This document shows positions 11,084 to 17,248 of a DNA stretch of 17,248 nt, piece after piece. The notes under the pieces are model-generated. The model saw nothing but the letters and a program-made list of their open reading frames with translations, was not told the DNA's origin and searched no databases. Source of the DNA: a virus. Lineage: Duplodnaviria > Heunggongvirae > Uroviricota > Caudoviricetes. Both the position numbers and the translations under genes were made by a program. Position 1 is the stretch's first letter. Every line of letters begins with the position of its first letter. The stretch lies in IMG/VR virus record IMGVR_UViG_2778261313_000007. The stretch is one strand, 5' to 3'.

Positions 11084-11680
11084 ATGCTAATTAATCAGCA
11101 AGAAAGAGATGAATTAGCCTTGTCTTGTACCGATCATGAATATCGTTTGCCAGTAAAACATAAGCACTTAAAGACCGATTACACTACATCCGGTTTTAGT
11201 CGCGAAGAAGCGAAAGAGATTTTAATCGAGTTGTATCGCGATCATGGGTATACCGATATTCACAACTTCTTTAAGAAGCATAGAACATCACATACAGAGT
11301 TTCGGAGAGTCCGAGATTGGTTTGATTTTGATATCAAGCGTTATTATCGCATTGATGACGGTCCTATCTATCGGTTGCAGTGGAAGCCGATCCGAGAAGT
11401 GTTGAAACAGAAGAGATTGAATCACGCTATTACACGCTATCGTAACGAGGCTTTCAAGAAAGGCTATGGTGATACAAGGGAACTATTCGTTGAACTCGCT
11501 AACGTGAAGTACAGCCACTATTACAACGATCCTAAATCCTTCTTTGAAGTGCTTCGCAAGGTTGATATAAGTCGGGGTACATACTATTCACGGTTGAAGA
11601 AGTACGGGATTAAGGCAGAGTTCTTTATGTCGGTTGACGATGGAGAACTTTTTCCGATAAAATGTAAGTCCTCTAAATAA
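11084..11680 (+). CDS. DNA-binding protein with C-terminal helix-turn-helix (resolvase/IS-type HTH-like); regulator or possible small terminase
   Basis: ATG 11084 preceded by AAGGAGGG SD. 198 aa. C-terminal DISRGTYYSRLKKYGIK matches the HTH-like motif shared with the two small proteins at 11715 and 14977. Divergent from terL. Confidence 0.55.
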   Translation: MLINQQERDELALSCTDHEYRLPVKHKHLKTDYTTSGFSREEAKEILIELYRDHGYTDIHNFFKKHRTSHTEFRRVRDWFDFDIKRYYRIDDGPIYRLQWKPIREVLKQKRLNHAITRYRNEAFKKGYGDTRELFVELANVKYSHYYNDPKSFFEVLRKVDISRGTYYSRLKKYGIKAEFFMSVDDGELFPIKCKSSK

Positions 11681-11714
11681 AAGTGAACATTCACTTTAAT
11701 TTGGAGAAATGACT

Positions 11715-11942
11715 ATGACTACTAAAACTACTCGCGGTCGTCCTGCCCGTTTTAACGCTGAACAAATGGCTGATATTGCCTACGCTTATTATACAGCGGA
11801 TCGTGGTAAGGAAGCGAAAGAACAGATTCTTAGTGAACATGGGATTTCAATTGCCCAATTCTATAAGAATATGAAGAAGTTAGACATTAAATTCTATGTT
11901 CAGATCGGTGATGGTCAGATCGTAGAAGCAACAGGTTTTTGA
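11715..11942 (+). CDS. small DNA-binding protein (AT-hook-like RGRP N-terminus plus HTH-like C-terminus)
   Basis: ORF-track ORF starts at 11709, but the GGAG SD at 11703-11706 is better spaced for the second ATG at 11715 (MTTKTTRGRPAR...). Motif GISIAQFYKNMKKLDIK is paralogous to 14977..15159. Followed by a strong terminator. Confidence 0.45.
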   Translation: MTTKTTRGRPARFNAEQMADIAYAYYTADRGKEAKEQILSEHGISIAQFYKNMKKLDIKFYVQIGDGQIVEATGF

Positions 11943-12906: not shown

Positions 12907-12997
12907 AGTAAAAATTCCCCTTAAACGGTTTAGTGATTTGGTCCTCCTAGTTCCGGCAGCATCACCGGAACAATTTTATTTATAAGAAGTTTTTATC

Positions 12998-13202: not shown

Positions 13203-13231
13203 ATCATAAAAAAGTCAGAAATTTTTGTCAA
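13203..13231 (-). promoter_or_regulatory. sigma70-like promoter for small ORF plus rha
   Basis: On the minus strand, TTGACA (complement of 13226-13231), a 17-nt spacer, then TATGAT (complement of 13203-13208). Embedded in the TTGTCAA/TTGACAA operator-like palindromes. Confidence 0.5.
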
Positions 13232-13266
13232 TGCCCCTTGACAAGACGCCAAGGGGTTGACCTAAC

Positions 13267-13734: not shown

Positions 13735-13934
13735 AGTGGAAATCCTCTAAAAGAAAGTGAATCAATCTAATATTATTTATAAAGAGAAAATTCTTGTTAT
13801 TATGAAAGGTGATTGTATTCAGTCGGGCAAAGCCCTCCTTCATAGATTTTGAATAAATCATCATCAAAACGAAGAAGTATCTTTAGAATATAAGAATCTT
13901 TCTTTTGGAGAAATAATAATCAGGAAGCAATTTG

Positions 13935-13963
13935 GCAACCGAAGGTTGCAATCCCGAAGGGAT
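13935..13963 (-). other. tandem UUCG-type hairpins
   Basis: Two adjacent inverted repeats: GCAACC-GAA-GGTTGC (13935-13949) and ATCCC-GAA-GGGAT (13951-13963). On the minus strand both read as C(UUCG)G tetraloop hairpins. Confidence 0.4.
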
Positions 13964-14089
13964 AACCAATACCTTTCTAGAAAGTGATTGTTACTCACTT
14001 CGTTCGTTTACTAGAATCAGTTAGTAACTAGTATTAAATCCCTTTCTGAGAAAATCCTTTCAAAAGCGAGTGAACGCCGTAGGTGTGAA

Positions 14090-14169
14090 CGTGAGCGAAG
14101 CGAACTATCCAATCCCTTTCGAATCCTGCTTGCAGGTCTTAGAAGGTGTTGATGGGCGCTTCGCGCACG
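14090..14169. repeat. extended imperfect dyad symmetry centred on a CCTGC-TT-GCAGG palindrome
   Basis: Arms CGTGAGCGAAGCG (14090-14102) and CGCTTCGCGCACG (14157-14169) are reverse complements with one mismatch. The midpoint coincides with the palindrome at 14125-14136. Partial symmetry extends out to about 14073-14180. Confidence 0.6.
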
Positions 14170-14310
14170 GCTACGCCGTATTCTTTTTGCGAGATCTTTC
14201 TTGAACGTAGTGAGAGAAAACGAGCAAAAAGGAGAACGTTAGTTCGAATTTTATATTCTATGGTCTGTGTGGTGAAATGTCTTTCAAGATCATACACTTA
14301 TGAGATTGAA

Positions 14311-14407
14311 GTGTAGGGTTAGTGTAGGTGTGTAGGTGTTATAGTGTAGGTTTACTGGCTAGTGTAGTGTAGGCCAATCCCTTTAAAGCGTAGGTTTGTA
14401 GTGTAGG
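14311..14407. repeat. cluster of seven direct GTGTAGG(T) repeats (iteron-like)
   Basis: Six exact GTGTAGG copies starting at 14311, 14322, 14330, 14344, 14367 and 14401, plus the variant GCGTAGG at 14388. All in the same orientation, 8-23 bp apart, immediately left of an AT-rich tract. Confidence 0.7.
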
Positions 14408-14413
14408 TTTTTC

Positions 14414-14430
14414 ATCAAAAATTTTGATAG
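14414..14430. repeat. 15-bp palindrome ATCAAAAATTTTGAT (operator-like), copy 1
   Basis: Perfect palindrome at 14414-14428. The 15-mer CAAAAATTTTGATAG (14416-14430) recurs exactly at 14565-14579. Confidence 0.6.
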
Positions 14431-14515
14431 AAAATTCTTGTATATTATTTAACCAGAAAATCACCAAAAACCGCTGTAAATGCATGATTTAAAAAGAATT
14501 ATCAAAAGGTCGTCG

Positions 14516-14524
14516 TGCTATAAT
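14516..14524 (+). promoter_or_regulatory. extended -10 promoter candidate
   Basis: TGcTATAAT (TG at 14516-14517, TATAAT at 14519-14524). The -35 is weak. Confidence 0.4.
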
Positions 14525-14564
14525 AGGTTATAAAGGTTGATAATCGTTATCCGCCATTTTCACA

Positions 14565-14579
14565 CAAAAATTTTGATAG
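14565..14579. repeat. copy 2 of the CAAAAATTTTGATAG element
   Basis: Exact 15-nt direct repeat of 14416-14430, lying about 25 bp upstream of the -35 of the strong plus-strand promoter. Confidence 0.6.
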
Positions 14580-14604
14580 TCATTTCTCGCTTAGATCAAG
14601 TGTA

Positions 14605-14633
14605 TTGACAACTATCAAGGATTATTTTATACT
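14605..14633 (+). promoter_or_regulatory. near-consensus sigma70 promoter
   Basis: TTGACA (14605-14610), a 17-nt spacer, then TATACT (14628-14633), directed toward the 14977-16529 genes. Confidence 0.6.
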
Positions 14634-14921
14634 TTTTCTCGTTGGTAGGGGTTGAAATTTTCGAAACAATCCCCATATTGATGATACGCAAGATTTTTTC
14701 GTGTATAAATACATGCATGAAAATGATTGTTCACTTCTGAAAATCCCCTGATTCACTGTTAATTCATACAGCACTGGCTAAACATACAGTACTTATTCGA
14801 TTGAATAATGTACGAATTGATTAATTATTAATCTTCTCTTTAGCAATTCGTGCTCCCACTGATCGGATATACAGTGGTTTTACAGGGTTTTTCGAAAAAC
14901 ATTTTATAAATAGAATTGTTC

Positions 14922-14941
14922 AGAGCAAAAAGCTCTTTTTT
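14922..14941 (+). terminator. weak hairpin plus T-run just upstream of the 14977 RBS (attenuator or leader terminator candidate)
   Basis: AGAGC-AAAAA-GCTCT followed by five to six T residues. Short AU-rich stem, so low confidence. Confidence 0.3.
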
Positions 14942-14976
14942 AAGAAATCATTATTCCAGATTTAGGAGGATATAAG

Positions 14977-15159
14977 ATGGCACGACCTGTTAAGTTCACT
15001 CGTGAAATCGTTTTAGAAATGGCAAAGCGTTATTTTGAACTGACACCTGATGTAGTGATGGGTGAATGGTTTAAAGGTGAAGGTATTGATCAATCAACCT
15101 TCCACAAACTCTTAAAGAAGTATGACATTAAAGTAAAGATTACCGCCGAGGTCTGGTAA
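14977..15159 (+). CDS. small DNA-binding protein (HTH-like), paralog of 11715..11942
   Basis: ATG 14977 preceded by AGGAGGA SD. 60 aa. N-terminal ARPVKF and C-terminal GIDQSTFHKLLKKYDIK align with the other two HTH-like proteins. Confidence 0.5.
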   Translation: MARPVKFTREIVLEMAKRYFELTPDVVMGEWFKGEGIDQSTFHKLLKKYDIKVKITAEVW

Positions 15160-15203
15160 TAACCTTTCACTGAGAATTATATGATGGCTTTAAAAATAAA
15201 AAA

Positions 15204-15231
15204 GCCTCCCTGTTGGCGCAAGGAGGCTTTT
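15204..15231 (+). terminator. terminator-like hairpin between 14977..15159 and the acidic-protein gene
   Basis: GCCTCC (15204-15209), a 12-nt loop, GGAGGC (15222-15227), then TTTT. Confidence 0.45.
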
Positions 15232-15275
15232 GATATGAACAATTAAACTAACACAGAGCATTCAGGAGTATTTAT

Positions 15276-16271
15276 ATGAAAAATTCTAAGCGCATTACCT
15301 TCAACATGTTTATTAAATCCAACGGCAAACTGAACATCACTGTCATGGAAGGTAAAGCAAGCAAACAAGACAAATCCTTTGAAGTAGTATCAGGTAAGAC
15401 TCTGACCGAAATGCGTCAGAATGCTGGCATCAAAGACGGTGCTGAATGGCAGATCACCAACCGTTTCGACAAACGTCACGTTAAACCTACACTGGTAGAA
15501 GGTGAATCCGTTTATTGCTTCGCTCGTGCTGTTAAAGCTGATGAAACTTACTATCTGGCTGTTGTTAAAACTGCTTCCGGCTTCCGTGCTGTAATGCATC
15601 ACAAGAGCAAACGTAACGAATACGGCGTAGAGACCCAGGAAGTCGCAAAACGCTTCCGTACTGTTGCTACCGAATCCACTGTAAAGGATGTTTCTGGTAC
15701 TGTTAACACCGCTAAAGGCGGTTCCTTCTACAACCACGCATTACAGGTTACTTCCTCCTTCTTCTGCAAAAAAGAAGCACAGAAAGAAGTTTCTCCGGTA
15801 GTAGTTGAAGAAGTTAAAGAAGAAGTTGCAGTGGTTGAATATTCCGAAGTTGAAGCACTGAAAGCACGCATCGCTGAACTGGAAGCTGAAAACGCATCTC
15901 TGAAAGCTGAACTGGCAGCACAGGAAACCACTTTCGAAGTAGCAGCGGTTGAAGTTGAAGCAGTTGAAGAAAAATCCATTGATGAAGAACTGGAAGAACT
16001 CCTTAACTATCGCTGGGGTGTTGTTGCAGAAGTAGAACAAGAAGTTGCTCCGGTAGTTGTTCCGGTTGAAGTTGAAGAAGAATCCGCACCTGTTACTAAC
16101 TTTGAATCCCTGCGCAATAACTTTATGGCTAAATTCAAAACCACTTGGGAAGATACCGAAGAAGAACAAGAAGAGATTGAAGTAAACGAAGACGAGATCC
16201 GCGAAGCACAGATGGCACTGCATGACGCTATCTACGACACCAACTACAGCGCCTACGCATACGCAGCTTAA
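15276..16271 (+). CDS. two-domain protein: basic N-terminal domain plus acidic coiled-coil C-terminal half; high-expression codon usage
   Basis: ATG 15276 with AGGAG SD. 331 aa. The C-terminal half is dominated by E/V/A with heptad-like EALKARIAELEAENASLKAELAAQE. Codons are strongly biased to CTG/CGT/GGT/GCT/TTC/AAC, unlike the rest of the window. Confidence 0.65.
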   Translation: MKNSKRITFNMFIKSNGKLNITVMEGKASKQDKSFEVVSGKTLTEMRQNAGIKDGAEWQITNRFDKRHVKPTLVEGESVYCFARAVKADETYYLAVVKTASGFRAVMHHKSKRNEYGVETQEVAKRFRTVATESTVKDVSGTVNTAKGGSFYNHALQVTSSFFCKKEAQKEVSPVVVEEVKEEVAVVEYSEVEALKARIAELEAENASLKAELAAQETTFEVAAVEVEAVEEKSIDEELEELLNYRWGVVAEVEQEVAPVVVPVEVEEESAPVTNFESLRNNFMAKFKTTWEDTEEEQEEIEVNEDEIREAQMALHDAIYDTNYSAYAYAA

Positions 16272-16529: not shown

Positions 16530-16552
16530 AAAAAGGGACTCCGAAGAGTCCC
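16528..16552 (-). terminator. rho-independent terminator (minus strand; may also act on plus-strand transcripts)
   Basis: Minus-strand RNA GGGACUC-UUCG-GAGUCCC followed by U7 (plus-strand A-run 16528-16534). Lies directly after the stop of the plus-strand gene 16287..16529. Confidence 0.65.
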
Positions 16553-16630
16553 TAGTAAGTTTAGGTTAGGTTTGCACAACAAAGATGAGGTTATAATGAA
16601 CATAATGCCACATTATTCTTTAAAGCCAGA

Positions 16631-16653
16631 AAAATAACCGCCCCGAAGGGCGG
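16631..16653 (-). terminator. second minus-strand terminator
   Basis: Minus-strand RNA CCGCCC-UUCG-GGGCGG followed by UUAUUUUUC. Confidence 0.5.
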
Positions 16654-16799
16654 GAGGATTAACACTCAATCTATACTTGTTATGTTTTTATGTTGTATGA
16701 TCACTGACTATGAAAACACTGTTTTAATGGCTTTTAATCGGGAATCCTCAAAGAAGATCCCCTGTTAATAACCATAAGGAGAAAAGGCAGATTACACTA

Positions 16800-16973
16800 T
16801 TATTTAGTATCCTTTTTACAGCAACTAAAAAGAATAAACAAAAAGAAGCATACCCAGCCGTAAGGCGTACCGATTAGAAATTTGAAAAACACCACCAGCG
16901 ATATAAAAATCAATTTAATGCCAGCGACGATAGTCAAAAACAGCAGAGTAGCAAAGTAGACAAAAAGATCCAT
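16800..16973 (-). CDS. small hydrophobic membrane peptide (57 aa)
   Basis: Below the ORF-track cutoff. ATG 16971-16973 with AGAGGA SD 7 nt upstream. MDLFVYFATLLFLTIVAGIKLIFISLVVFFKFLIGTPYGWVCFFLFILFSCCKKDTK, predicted two transmembrane helices with a charged C-terminus. Confidence 0.3.
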   Translation of the reverse strand: MDLFVYFATLLFLTIVAGIKLIFISLVVFFKFLIGTPYGWVCFFLFILFSCCKKDTK

Positions 16974-17026
16974 AGATAATCCTCTTTGAAAACGACCATC
17001 ATCTATAGTTCAATTCATCGATTTAA

Positions 17027-17128
17027 TTAATGATACTTGAAAGCGTTACACAAAGTAGAAATGCCAATATGTGCCAGTGAATATACGATAGTTAATCCTA
17101 CAGCCAGATAAATCAAAAATTCAACCAT
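17027..17128 (-). CDS. small hydrophobic membrane peptide (33 aa)
   Basis: Below the ORF-track cutoff. ATG 17126-17128 with GAGGAT SD 6 nt upstream. MVEFLIYLAVGLTIVYSLAHIGISTLCNAFKYH, a single predicted transmembrane helix. Confidence 0.25.
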   Translation of the reverse strand: MVEFLIYLAVGLTIVYSLAHIGISTLCNAFKYH

Positions 17129-17140
17129 AGGTAAATCCTC

Positions 17141-17186
17141 AAATAAGAAAAAGGTTAGCGGGGGATGTTCTCCCATAAGCGCTAAC
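17141..17186 (-). terminator. hairpin plus U-rich tract upstream of the 33-aa peptide gene
   Basis: GTTAGCG ... CGCTAAC 7-bp stem (17154-17186) enclosing a GGGA/TCCC inner stem. On the minus strand it is followed by CUUUUUCUUAUUU. Confidence 0.35.
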
Positions 17187-17248
17187 TTAAGGGTTGTGGT
17201 ATTACGCCTGATATGATTTAACGTGCCGATGAATTACTCTCACGATAA

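Follow-up and report, generated by a model that had tools for sequence, protein, structure and literature searches.

The DNA analysed here (the window) is a stretch of 17,248 nucleotides, and the interval under study, 14516-14976, belongs to an integrated, temperate E. coli prophage of about 35 kb, which has a serine-recombinase integrase and a lambda-type terminase and portal. Next to the interval lies a rightward operon of three genes, encoding a 60-aa helical protein, a 331-aa protein and an 80-aa coiled-coil protein. The sequence between promoters and operon, called the leader below, comes in two versions in E. coli, type A (the window's own) and type B (the alternative), and further leaders were compared from Salmonella and Edwardsiella. 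The features of the locus are the following.

14307-14410: about eight iterons (T)AGTGTAGG, direct-repeat families in the same module as the leader; probable binding sites of the 331-aa protein
14414-14428: perfect palindrome ATCAAAAATTTTGAT, conserved in type-A relatives; candidate operator
14516-14524, + strand: upstream extended -10 promoter element TGCTATAAT
14563-14577: imperfect second copy of ATCAAAAATTTTGAT; candidate operator
14605-14633, + strand: main promoter, TTGACA (14605-14610), 17-nt spacer, TATACT (14628-14633); 11/12 positions, best site in the region
14605-14618: palindrome TTGACAACTATCAA containing the -35 of the main promoter; candidate operator
14648-14679, + strand: HP1, stem-loop GGGGTTGAAA..ACAATCCCC around a -35-like TTGAAA, then CATATT (TTGAAA-16-CATATT, 9/12)
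14696-14723, + strand: HP2, hairpin UUUUCGUGUAU-AAAUAC-AUGCAUGAAAA; arms covary, loop invariant
14742-14753 with 14884-14893, + strand: long-range helix, predicted pairing
14754-14773: LexA-like palindrome 1, CACTGTTAATTCATACAGCA, heterology index 7.7
14772-14791: LexA-like palindrome 2, CACTGGCTAAACATACAGTA, heterology index 7.5, overlapping palindrome 1 by 2 bp
14832-14854, + strand: 23-mer TCTTCTCTTTAGCAATTCGTGCT, common to the otherwise unrelated type-A and type-B leaders
14857-14876: LexA-like palindrome 3, CACTGATCGGATATACAGTG, weaker and borderline, heterology index 14.0
14888-14899: palindrome TTTTTCGAAAAA
14905-14912, + strand: TATAAATA box; candidate proximal -10, alternatively an RNA processing site
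14922-14941, + strand: hairpin AGAGC-AAAAA-GCTCT (14922-14936) and T5 (14937-14941); candidate weak intrinsic terminator or attenuator
14964-15159, + strand: Shine-Dalgarno AGGAGG (14964-14969) and 60-aa gene (14977-15159), first gene of the operon
15276-16271, + strand: 331-aa gene, main cargo of the operon; putative iteron-binding replication initiator

No CI-type repressor is recognisable in the prophage, and its PGAP annotation contains neither a repressor gene nor a replication gene. The early genes of the prophage family are nearly all ORFans, with no recognisable repressor or replication protein among them. The region was matched in 58 of 5426 complete E. coli genomes (about 1%), 34 of which carry the window's leader type, and the family was also found in Salmonella and Edwardsiella. 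A megablast search against phages and plasmids found no relative of the region, and scans of representative genomes, by protein and by 21-mer, gave no match.

The arrangement of promoter, leader and hairpin is repeated in 44 distinct relatives, drawn from prophages of E. coli, Salmonella and Edwardsiella, and persists where their sequences are unrelated. A promoter matching at least 10 of 12 positions lies 127-480 nt ahead of the gene in 43 of the 44 distinct upstream regions, a (T/C)ATAAATA box lies at -69 to -73 in 43, and a hairpin with a U-run lies at -55 to -35 in all 44. Single motifs on their own are weakly beyond chance, and the layout was accepted as real because it is conserved across the 44 regions. 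Iterons, leader and genes form three blocks, each recombining independently of the others, with break-points falling at module borders, while the leader block stays one unit at about 90% identity in 31 relatives and keeps that identity even where the 60-aa protein has dropped to 54%. No other non-coding part of the prophage family is as well conserved as the leader, which would be the obvious place for a decision about lysogeny, induction or replication.

The initial annotation, made from the letters of the window, had placed a near-consensus promoter at 14605-14633, a second, extended -10 promoter at 14516-14524, and the resulting transcript starts about 340 nt before the first rightward gene. 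All three points hold: the main promoter is the region's best site, the extended -10 is TGCTATAAT, and the distance between a predicted start near 14640 and the ATG at 14977 comes to about 337 nt. When the 1.24-kb intergenic region is shuffled with its dinucleotides preserved, 8.7% of the shuffles contain an 11/12 site. The promoter is kept in all type-A relatives, and has analogues of 11-12/12 in Salmonella and in type B (12/12 and 11/12). The extended -10 reads TGCTATAAT or TGCCATAAT in E. coli relatives and TGCTATTAT in Salmonella L106 and L107. It is flanked by the two copies of the ATCAAAAATTTTGAT palindrome, whose number alone is not above chance. The palindrome at the -35 reads TTGACAnnTGTCAA in most relatives; inspection of the sequence found no -10 for it on the minus strand, and the idea of a divergent -35 was dropped. 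In Salmonella L104 the structured modules and the LexA-like box come first and the strongest promoter after them, just 127 nt before the gene, so the modules need not form one leader.

The leader had been described as having no convincing ORF, and the relatives bear this out. The longest frames in the interval encode 32 aa (plus strand, 14642-14740, TTG start) and 50 and 40 aa (minus strand). None of them is conserved across 23 relatives, none has an RBS, and single-base indels at 14694, 14712 and 14720-22 disrupt the frames. A conserved small protein encoded in the leader was the finding that the initial annotation had named as evidence against its own reading, and none turned up. A small protein or leader peptide, to which these frames might point, was rejected on this lack of conservation and seems extremely improbable. 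In some genomes PGAP calls a 69-aa CDS over the neighbouring iteron block, which is merely translated repeats.

Folding and covariation analysis, which had been proposed as a check, supports structure on the plus strand. The leader folds better than shuffled sequences (z of -3.6 for the window's version and -6.5 for the alternative) and better than its minus strand, and 8 pairs show compensatory changes, against 2-4 in slid controls. Rfam gave no match at the gathering threshold, and chance-level ones only at E<=10. Of the palindromes first pointed out, GGGG..CCCC (14648-14651 with 14671-14674) and TTTTTCGAAAAA are both present, but TTTTTCGAAAAA is not conserved in relatives and was dropped as a functional element.

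GGGG..CCCC belongs to HP1, which in type B lies about 75 nt ahead of the gene with TATAAAT 18 nt after TTGAAA. Because of the -35-like TTGAAA inside it, and the TATAAAT at 18 nt in the alternative version, this element is taken to be a promoter/stem-loop cassette, and its one-sided changes preserve G-U pairing on the plus strand. HP2 includes a copy of TATAAATA at 14704-14711. Its three stem variants still fold, with 4 of 11 pairs changed on both sides, and its loop reappears in type B on a different stem. The CU-rich part of the 23-mer sits in the loop of a 14-bp stem (14810-14824 with 14839-14853), whose changes in E. coli are all one-sided and compatible with pairing, and which in Salmonella is partly disrupted. 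From type A to type B and Salmonella, HP1, HP2, the 23-mer and the TATAAATA cassette recur in a different order.

This reuse resembles the PeSL cassettes of RB49, phi1 and other T4-type phages, in which a strong sigma-70 consensus promoter is paired with a short stem-loop, often GGGG..CCCC, located in the spacer from -35 to -10 or right behind the -10 (PMC2839356; PMC4122927). PeSLs are intergenic, lie directly ahead of a Shine-Dalgarno and a small gene, terminate upstream transcription, and are swapped as modules between related genomes (PMC2839356; PMC4122927). The prophage leader likewise has a strong sigma-70-type promoter (14605), an adjacent polyG..polyC stem-loop, GGGGTTGAAA..CAATCCCC around TTGAAA (14648-14674), and repeated intergenic copies exchanged between relatives. 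A second cassette, CCCCTTG..CAAGGGG with TTGACA-17-TATGAT (promoter at 13231), is found on the minus strand at 13203-13262. A distant search yielded only one stretch of this intergenic region, the 75 nt at 13848-13922, whose identity with intergenic sequence from RB49/JSE-type phages is 77-80%. Unlike PeSLs, which flank ORFans in a hyperplastic region of T4-like myoviruses, the modules here lie in a 35-kb temperate prophage and are joined into an ORF-free leader of about 300 nt, which additionally carries LexA-type boxes. The promoter and terminator roles proposed here are read from the sequence.

Three predicted hairpins of the leader are CTG-N10-CAG palindromes that score as LexA boxes, and therefore part of the apparent RNA structure is probably operator DNA. 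Scoring used a heterology-index matrix of 18 published E. coli boxes, which themselves score 2-12 (2-17 when left out one at a time), against a window background of 39.5±6.3. By this index two of the three palindromes score like genuine LexA boxes (7.7 and 7.5), while the third is borderline (14.0). Boxes 1, 2 and 3 rank second, first and fourth in the window, and box 2 is also the best-scoring site in the whole 35-kb prophage of E. coli strain H2, at 2523685-2558849 of NZ_CP028733. Three such motifs within 125 nt arose in 1 of 2000 shuffles. The boxes are retained at -223, -205 and -120 in E. coli and Salmonella. Box 1 shares 17 of 20 positions with the published ftsK box and is degenerate (CGG or TTG) in 5 of 31 relatives, with changes that keep G-U pairing in the RNA; the CTG and CAG of box 2 are invariant in 31 relatives including Salmonella; and box 3 is CTGT-N8-ACAG in Salmonella L108, with an index of 10.0. 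Some variants shift toward the LexA consensus yet break RNA pairs (such as L062, CAGTA/TACTGG), and a non-homologous Salmonella leader has a near-perfect box, TACTGTATGAATATACAGTA, with an index of 2.3.

SOS boxes are known in prophage promoter regions, for instance those of coliphage 186 tum, the Gifsy antirepressors, GIL01 and CTXphi (concept: PMC12527982). Here too, CTG-N10-CAG sites that score like genuine E. coli boxes are part of an early operon's control region, and the prophage lacks a recognisable CI-type repressor; the two adjacent candidate sites would suit cooperative LexA binding. Unlike the boxes of LexA-controlled prophage genes, these predicted sites lie within the leader, 115-237 nt past the main start site and off any recognisable promoter: no site of at least 9/12 lies over them on either strand, and the same holds for the box in L104. 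A position inside the leader is unusual for LexA repression, and LexA is not known to act as a strong roadblock. Sister lineages within this prophage family do without such sites: no LexA-like box is present in the leaders of type B, Salmonella L106/L107 and Edwardsiella. LexA control therefore cannot hold for the family as a whole.

At the end of the leader lies the TATAAATA box, at a fixed 69-73 nt ahead of the ATG in all E. coli and Salmonella lineages. The window has 5 copies of TATAAATA, where 1.1 would be expected (1 in 200 shuffles), and all of them are intergenic and in the early region. A paralogous cassette, TTATAAATAnAATTGTTC with a hairpin, precedes the Rha gene. The box has a likeness to T4-type late promoters (PMC1524935), which is a curiosity only; no gp55-like gene was recognisable.

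After the box comes the AGAGC/GCTCT hairpin with a T-run, reported at the outset as immediately preceding the RBS. It is there, and it is conserved across genera in versions that are not homologous: GAGCG-GTTAA-CGCTC, AGAGCG-GAAA-CGCTCT and AGAGC-AAAA-GCTCT, and GCCGTC-ACCC-GACGGC in Edwardsiella. Stem and U-run thus persist across lineages while stem and loop sequences differ, and one-sided changes from A-U to G-U are found in 11 of 31 relatives. The tract is T5 in the window (six T with the last stem base, 14936-14941), 4-8 T in all E. coli and Salmonella relatives and ATTTAATTT in Edwardsiella. Both marks of an intrinsic terminator, a GC-containing stem and an adjacent U-tract, are present in the sequence; the count of terminator-like sites was 3, against 0.9±1.0 expected. 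Termination may be slight, because the window's hairpin is weak (5 bp with 3 GC pairs, -5.9 kcal/mol; -5.9 to -11.8 in relatives).

The first protein of the operon, of 60 aa, is predicted to form three helices (pLDDT 72). It is paralogous to the window's 77-aa and 198-aa proteins and has homologues only in E. coli, Salmonella and Edwardsiella prophages, and a fold search with its model returned nothing at E<1. The 331-aa family is an ORFan, with 6 matches among 1.84 billion representatives. The protein has no Pfam or PHROG match beyond a coiled coil and no similarity to known Rep families, and the structure model of its N-domain (pLDDT 44) was unusable. What points to its role is that the type of the upstream iterons (GTGTAGG, GGGGCAA or GGGGGA) matches its N-terminus in 30 of 30 distinct loci, independent of leader type. 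Since its N-terminus switches in step with the tandem repeats, the 331-aa protein is probably an iteron-binding replication initiator, and this covariation points to a new candidate initiator family.

Iteron-regulated replicons include P1 RepA, F RepE and lambda O/ori. As in these, about eight direct repeats adjoin an AT-rich stretch and the gene of a type-matched protein. Unlike in these, the ORFan protein has no detectable likeness to known initiators, the iterons lie about 200 nt upstream of the promoters instead of overlapping them, and the promoter palindrome is unrelated to the iterons.

Altogether, the 340-base leader region looks like the control region of probable replication genes, rather than a free-standing small RNA. 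We give about an even chance to the reading that it is a control region for early or replication genes, probably under SOS control: strong promoters would read into a structured 5' leader, rich in operators and equipped with a leaky terminator. Two sigma-70 promoters (14516-14524 and 14605-14633) would fire rightwards and transcribe an untranslated, structured leader of about 300 nt, which would have been assembled from shuffled modules: the GGGG..CCCC promoter/stem-loop, the covarying hairpin, the LexA-type boxes (two adjacent and one weaker) and the TATAAATA box. It would end in the short GC hairpin and U-run ahead of the Shine-Dalgarno of the three-gene operon. In a lysogen, operator-bound proteins would keep the output of the strong promoters low, with host LexA forming a block or loop at the leader boxes and another factor on the -35 palindrome, and the weak terminator would halt a fraction of the transcripts. 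DNA damage would then remove LexA and allow more read-through into the replication operon.

The initial annotation had favoured a leader RNA, riboregulator or attenuator, and it stands in part: the promoters, the absence of ORFs and the conserved hairpin agree with it, but manual inspection turned up no conserved antiterminator and Rfam gave no match. Known systems of this kind are the countertranscript-driven attenuation of plasmid rep genes (pT181, pIP501) and the leader-RNA immunity of P4 (CI), P1 (c4) and N15 (CA). The locus shares with them a strong, constitutive-looking promoter, a long untranslated structured leader and a terminator right before the first replication or early gene, but it lacks a conserved antisense promoter, target/antitarget repeats and a match to Rfam C4, and inspection revealed no alternative antiterminator fold. 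An immunity RNA of the P4/P1/N15 type was rejected, as the repeat search found no target/antitarget set and Rfam no C4 match. A regulated attenuator, in which an antisense RNA, a metabolite or a protein would decide whether the leader folds as an antiterminator or as the terminator hairpin, is quite unlikely. The leader is long and structured, its terminator lies directly ahead of the RBS of an operon probably encoding a replication initiator, and there is a weak antisense promoter-like site, TTTATA-17-TATCAT (14709-14681, minus strand), whose -10 is invariant in type A. That site, however, is only 9/12, is lost in L020-type variants and has no terminator. On manual inspection of the type-A and type-B leaders, the terminator arm had no conserved alternative partner, so regulated attenuation is unsupported: TTTTCG/CGAAAA in type A is lost in variants, and the 6-nt ACCGCT/AGCGGT in type B, 225 nt apart, is within chance. 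The hairpin might instead be a boxB-like nut site that loads an N-type antiterminator, and this is hardly credible. The loop is GAAAA in 22 of 23 type-A relatives (5-bp stem), like that of lambda nutR boxB, and the GCTCTTT after the stem resembles boxA. The loop is not conserved among lineages, though, and the nut site was rejected on that ground: it is AAAAA in the window, GAAAA or GTTAA elsewhere, AAAA, GAAA or AAA in Salmonella and ACCC in Edwardsiella. The stem is invariably followed by a U-run, and none of the window's ORFs looks like an arginine-rich, N-like protein. No evidence was found for a riboswitch-type attenuator, a nut site or a leader peptide.

It is rather unlikely, though it deserves weight, that a separate non-coding RNA of about 300 nt (about 14640-14941) ends at the hairpin and U-run, with the operon served by a proximal promoter whose -10 is TATAAATA (14905-14912). 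If TATAAATA is such a promoter, as it may be, the upstream transcript could be a separate RNA; the operon mRNA would begin at the hairpin, and the RNA would work either in cis or in trans, perhaps in immunity or copy control. A consensus promoter and a terminator with a U-run are the standard anatomy of an sRNA gene, the fixed TATAAATA box also precedes other early genes in the right orientation, and in type B it has a TTGAAA -35 at 18 nt. The leader is more conserved than the downstream protein, HP2 with its invariant loop and covarying arms resembles an interaction loop, and unrelated leaders share the CU-rich 23-mer. Against this, the terminator is weak, the window's proximal TATAAATA has neither a usable -35 nor a TG extension, no Rfam family matches, nothing elsewhere in the region is convincingly complementary to it, a trans-acting sRNA of 300 nt would be a long one, and in L104 the strongest promoter is downstream of the structured modules. 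Unlikely, too, is that the leader has no function as one RNA and is a patchwork of PeSL-type cassettes gathered by modular shuffling, which would serve, each in its place, as promoters at the DNA level, as insulating terminators and as hot-spots of recombination. The order and position of HP1 and HP2 do differ between type A and type B, the iteron, leader and gene blocks recombine independently, and there are the second cassette and the RB49/JSE-like stretch. HP1, with GGGG..CCCC around the -35, fits a described PeSL subclass exactly (PMC2839356). Against a patchwork, wobble-compatible and compensatory changes in the long-range and hairpin pairings are seen on the plus strand only, the leader block stays one unit in 31 relatives, and PeSLs normally flank small ORFs, of which these 300 nt hold none.

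Returning to the control region with LexA-type boxes, a bolder version may be proposed tentatively, and we consider it rather improbable: the phage would have no repressor of its own, host LexA on the in-leader SOS-box array and the leaky terminator would together hold the iteron-type operon off, and the leader would be the whole lysogeny switch, in which type B would have swapped the boxes for another palindrome, and with it another host or phage factor, by PeSL-like exchange. If the LexA boxes are real, a host repressor switch would act from within a 5' leader, combined with an attenuator. The shuffled modules are also of a kind described only for T4-like lytic phages, and here they seem to be exchanged in a temperate phage, an RB49-type stretch included.

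The window forms the right half of a prophage of about 35 kb, and E. coli chromosomes contain integrated DNA near-identical to it. In strain H2 the prophage is inserted in hicB and encodes a large serine recombinase; relatives occupy other chromosomal sites, also in Salmonella and Edwardsiella, and keep the gene order around a non-coding region of 1.2-1.6 kb. No close relative was found among sequenced phages or plasmids, and the PGAP annotation of the prophage contains no repressor and no replication gene. The genes are laid out as follows:

From 10997 leftwards: tail-fibre, capsid/protease, portal and lambda-type large-terminase genes
Early region, + strand: genes for proteins of 198 aa (11084-11680) and 77 aa (11709-11942)
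Early region, - strand: Rha, 51-aa and 155-aa genes
13735-14976: gene-free region of 1242 nt, after the early genes and before the rightward operon
Downstream of it: rightward operon of 60-aa (14977-15159), 331-aa (15276-16271) and 80-aa genes

Near their right prophage end, relatives encode on the - strand a candidate small terminase of 184 aa, Nu1-like (locus L064 of strain H2, 23542-24096), about 6 kb away from the large terminase. The window is without it at 16530-17248 and has two small membrane-like ORFs there on the - strand, 16800-16973 and 17027-17176.

The initial annotation had described strong promoters ahead of a non-coding leader, and these elements were all found. The main promoter, TTGACA-17-TATACT at 14605-14633, matches at 11/12 positions and is the region's best site, a score that 8.7% of shuffled versions of the intergenic region also reach; the extended -10 TGCTATAAT lies at 14516-14524, and the leader of about 337 nt has short ORFs only. 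Also present are GGGG..CCCC at 14648-14674, the palindrome TTTTTCGAAAAA at 14888-14899, and AGAGC-AAAAA-GCTCT with T5 at 14922-14941 (dG -5.9 kcal/mol). Single-sequence statistics are modest for these elements, and it is the sequence comparison across relatives that makes the features real.

The relatives form mosaic classes that have in common 13735-14069 and everything from 14929 on, and the stretch between 14069 and 14929 is exchanged among them block by block. In type B, another version, two tandem consensus promoters (12/12 and 11/12) stand in sequence unrelated to type A, the window's version, and the leader of about 370 nt is ORF-free and folds extremely well (z -6.5). The type-B hairpin, GAGCG-GTTAA-CGCTC with T6, has another 5-bp stem at the type-A distance from the gene. 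Salmonella hairpins read AGAGCG-GAAA-CGCTCT, AGAGCG-AAA-CGCTCT or AGAGC-AAAA-GCTCT, and that of Edwardsiella is GCCGTC-ACCC-GACGGC, then ATTTAATTT. Among 44 distinct upstream regions, a hairpin with U-run occurs at -55 to -35 from the ATG of the 60-aa gene in 44/44, a promoter of at least 10/12 lies 127-480 nt upstream of the ATG in 43/44, and a TATAAATA or CATAAATA box at -69 to -73 is present in 43/44, Edwardsiella being the exception. That stem and U-run persist while stem sequence and loop differ between lineages fits a terminator and speaks against a boxB-like protein-binding loop, which was rejected.

The leader contains the following elements:

14648-14679, + strand: HP1, GGGGTTGAAA..ACAATCCCC then CATATT
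14696-14723, + strand: HP2, loop AAAUAC invariant, arms in three versions that each still pair
14742-14753 / 14884-14893, + strand: long-range helix, with a C-G / U-G / U-A series among relatives
14810-14824 / 14839-14853, + strand: 14-bp stem whose loop exposes the first, CU-rich part of a 23-mer
14832-14854: the 23-mer, identical between types A and B
14905-14912, + strand: TATAAATA box upstream of the terminal hairpin

The earlier statement that the leader has no convincing ORF was borne out: none is common to 23 type-A leaders and one-base indels in type-A relatives interrupt the window's leader ORFs, so an encoded protein was rejected. The leader DNA is about 90% identical even where the relatives' 60-aa protein is 54% identical, and constraint therefore acts on the non-coding sequence itself. 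Structure was assessed by projecting the window's MFE structure on 31 sequences, with slid partners as controls. Pairing cells amounted to 90% versus 34-48% with slid partners, a fraction inflated because the structure derives from one of the aligned sequences. Compensatory changes, which the initial annotation had proposed to look for, exceeded the controls (8 pairs and 27 cells versus 2-4 pairs and 3-13 cells), and folding was better on the + than on the - strand. This supports a structured RNA of the + strand to a moderate degree, with the support concentrated in HP2 (both-side changes in 4/11 pairs) and the long-range helix; the observation behind the proposed leader RNA, riboregulator or attenuator stands, and its interpretation is supported in part only. 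The HP2 loop recurs in type B on another stem. The HP1 module lies there about 75 nt before the gene, with TATAAAT following at 18 nt, and is plausibly a promoter, TTGAAA-18-TATAAA, whose hexamers enclose a G4..C4 stem-loop.

Three palindromes of the leader, initially scored as RNA hairpins, have the form CTG-N10-CAG, with CTG and CAG exact in all three relative to the E. coli SOS-box consensus TACTG(TA)5CAGTA (PMC8072944, PMC12527982). Their heterology index, which is lower for sites closer to known LexA boxes, was computed with a matrix from 18 boxes tabulated in PMC3009722:

14754-14773: palindrome 1, consensus 14/20, index 7.7
14772-14791: palindrome 2, consensus 15/20, index 7.5
14857-14876: palindrome 3, consensus 13/20, index 14.0, borderline

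When the window was shuffled by dinucleotides, three such motifs within 125 nt arose in 1/2000 cases. Indices of known boxes are 2-12 (leave-one-out 2-17) against a window background of 39.5+-6.3, and the palindromes take ranks 1, 2 and 4 of the window. Boxes 1 and 2 are the best sites of the entire 35-kb prophage of strain H2, and box 1 equals the published ftsK box at 17/20 positions. Boxes stand at -223, -205 and -120 in every type-A leader, including Salmonella leaders with an unrelated 5' part, and the box TACTGTATGAATATACAGTA of a non-homologous Salmonella leader (L104/L105) is near-perfect, its index being 2.3. Some variants, such as that of L062, are closer to the LexA consensus yet break the RNA pair; box 1 is degenerate in 5/31 relatives, with changes that preserve G-U pairing. 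No LexA-type box was found in type B, in the Salmonella loci L106/L107 or in Edwardsiella. The likeness to LexA-controlled prophage genes lies in the motif and the difference in its position within the leader: the main start precedes the boxes by 115-237 nt, and no recognisable promoter overlapping them was found. LexA may bind boxes 1 and 2, with the chances about evenly balanced.

Where type A has these boxes, type B (L006, 3740-3775) has a palindrome AAATTGATTGAATAAACATCAATTT of the form AAATTGAT-N9-ATCAATTT; L006 further contains long-range inverted repeats of 20 nt, GTTATCACCGTGTTAAAT.. / ..ATTTAACACGTCTGATAAC, and together they suggest another regulator for the same operon. A perfect palindrome ATCAAAAATTTTGAT at 14414-14428 and an imperfect second copy at 14563-14577, 149 bp apart, flank the extended -10 promoter, are kept in type-A relatives and are candidate operators.

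Upstream of the promoters, about eight iterons (T)AGTGTAGG occupy 14307-14410; other relatives have about nine copies of TTCAGGGGCAAAA or GGGGGA-type iterons. The iteron type (GTGTAGG, GGGGCAA or GGGGGA) predicts the N-terminus of the operon's second gene product (MKNSKRITFN.., MLFSANFFTNE.. or MKNV..FYDN) in 30/30 distinct loci, independently of leader type and 60-aa variant. This match argues that the 331-aa protein is very probably an iteron-binding protein; most simply it would be a replication initiator, and iterons and protein point to a new family of iteron-binding proteins, probably replication initiators, and to an origin in the region. The family is an ORFan, and its structure model was unusable. 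The RefSeq 69-aa protein WP_024189125.1 (L100, L101 1192-1401; NZ_CP121356, NZ_CM168023) is translated GGGGCAA iterons with repeated FQGQ and very probably a miscalled gene.

The 60-aa protein is predicted to have three helices, and its model had no fold match. Its two paralogues within the window are the 77-aa protein and two repeats inside the 198-aa protein (BLASTP E 3e-6, 1e-3); they share RPxxF..(K/R)K(Y/L)(D/G)IK and resemble a small family of helix-turn-helix-like proteins. Within the operon, at 15200-15231 between the 60-aa and 331-aa genes, lies a strong, GC-rich hairpin of 13 bp flanked by an A-run and a T-run. It resembles a terminator acting in both directions, so that expression of the 331-aa gene may depend on read-through or on a separate promoter.

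In the preferred reading, strong promoters flanked by operators would lead into a structured 5' leader, and leader-bound proteins, probably LexA among them, together with a leaky terminator 35 nt upstream of the Shine-Dalgarno would limit the output of the replication/early operon. In the main rival reading, which is unlikely, this terminator instead ends a separate RNA of about 300 nt, and a promoter at the TATAAATA box serves the operon alone; the distribution of the box lends this some weight. The window has 5 copies versus 1.1 expected (1/200 shuffles reach this), at 12977-12984(-), 13774-13781(-), 14704-14711(+), 14905-14912(+) and 15269-15276(-), mostly 40-72 nt before gene starts. In the whole prophage it is confined to intergenic early and lysogeny regions, it is correctly oriented before the 155-aa, Rha and 60-aa genes, and a paralogous cassette of TTATAAATAnAATTGTTC plus hairpin, like that before the 60-aa gene, precedes Rha. 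TATAAATA has the same sequence as the consensus of T4 late promoters, but no gp55-like gene is recognisable. The leader and the separate RNA are not exclusive, because a PeSL, the promoter-early stem-loop cassette of T4-type phages, by definition combines a terminator of upstream transcription with the promoter of the next gene (PMC2839356).

On its sequence, the region would be a variation on regulatory arrangements already known, with putative functional roles, in a prophage family that is uncharacterised. With PeSLs it has in common the consensus promoters, the exchange of cassettes, and G4..C4 stem-loops that lie within the promoter or follow it; unlike PeSLs, the window's element is outside any T4-like genome and has no ORF that it flanks. 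The window's 75-nt 13848-13922 is 77-80% identical to intergenic DNA from T4-like phages of the Krischvirus group (RB49, JSE, phi1-type) and is probably a PeSL-type regulatory cassette common to a temperate prophage and lytic myoviruses. Rep-leader attenuators and the leader RNAs of P4/P1/N15 are similar in layout; of the features that define them, the leader has no conserved antisense promoter, target repeats or family match, and inspection of types A and B showed no conserved alternative fold excluding the terminator. An immunity RNA of the P4/P1 type was rejected on the lack of target repeats and family match.

RB49 has the counterpart of 13848-13922 twice, between ORF165c and ORF164c. On the - strand at 13203-13262, between the 155-aa and 51-aa genes, a CCCCTTGGCGTCTTGTCAAGGGG stem-loop directly before TTGACA-17-TATGAT (11/12) is a second putative PeSL-like terminator/promoter cassette. 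An element particular to the window's version of the region, 14070-14235, has a 13-nt long-range inverted repeat GAGCGAAGCG..CGCTTCGCGC (14090-14102 / 14157-14169) and a terminator-like hairpin with T-run on the + strand (14167-14189); its type-B counterpart is longer and different, with repeated CTAGTAAC motifs, and the element may represent a structured RNA or an array of sites for protein binding.
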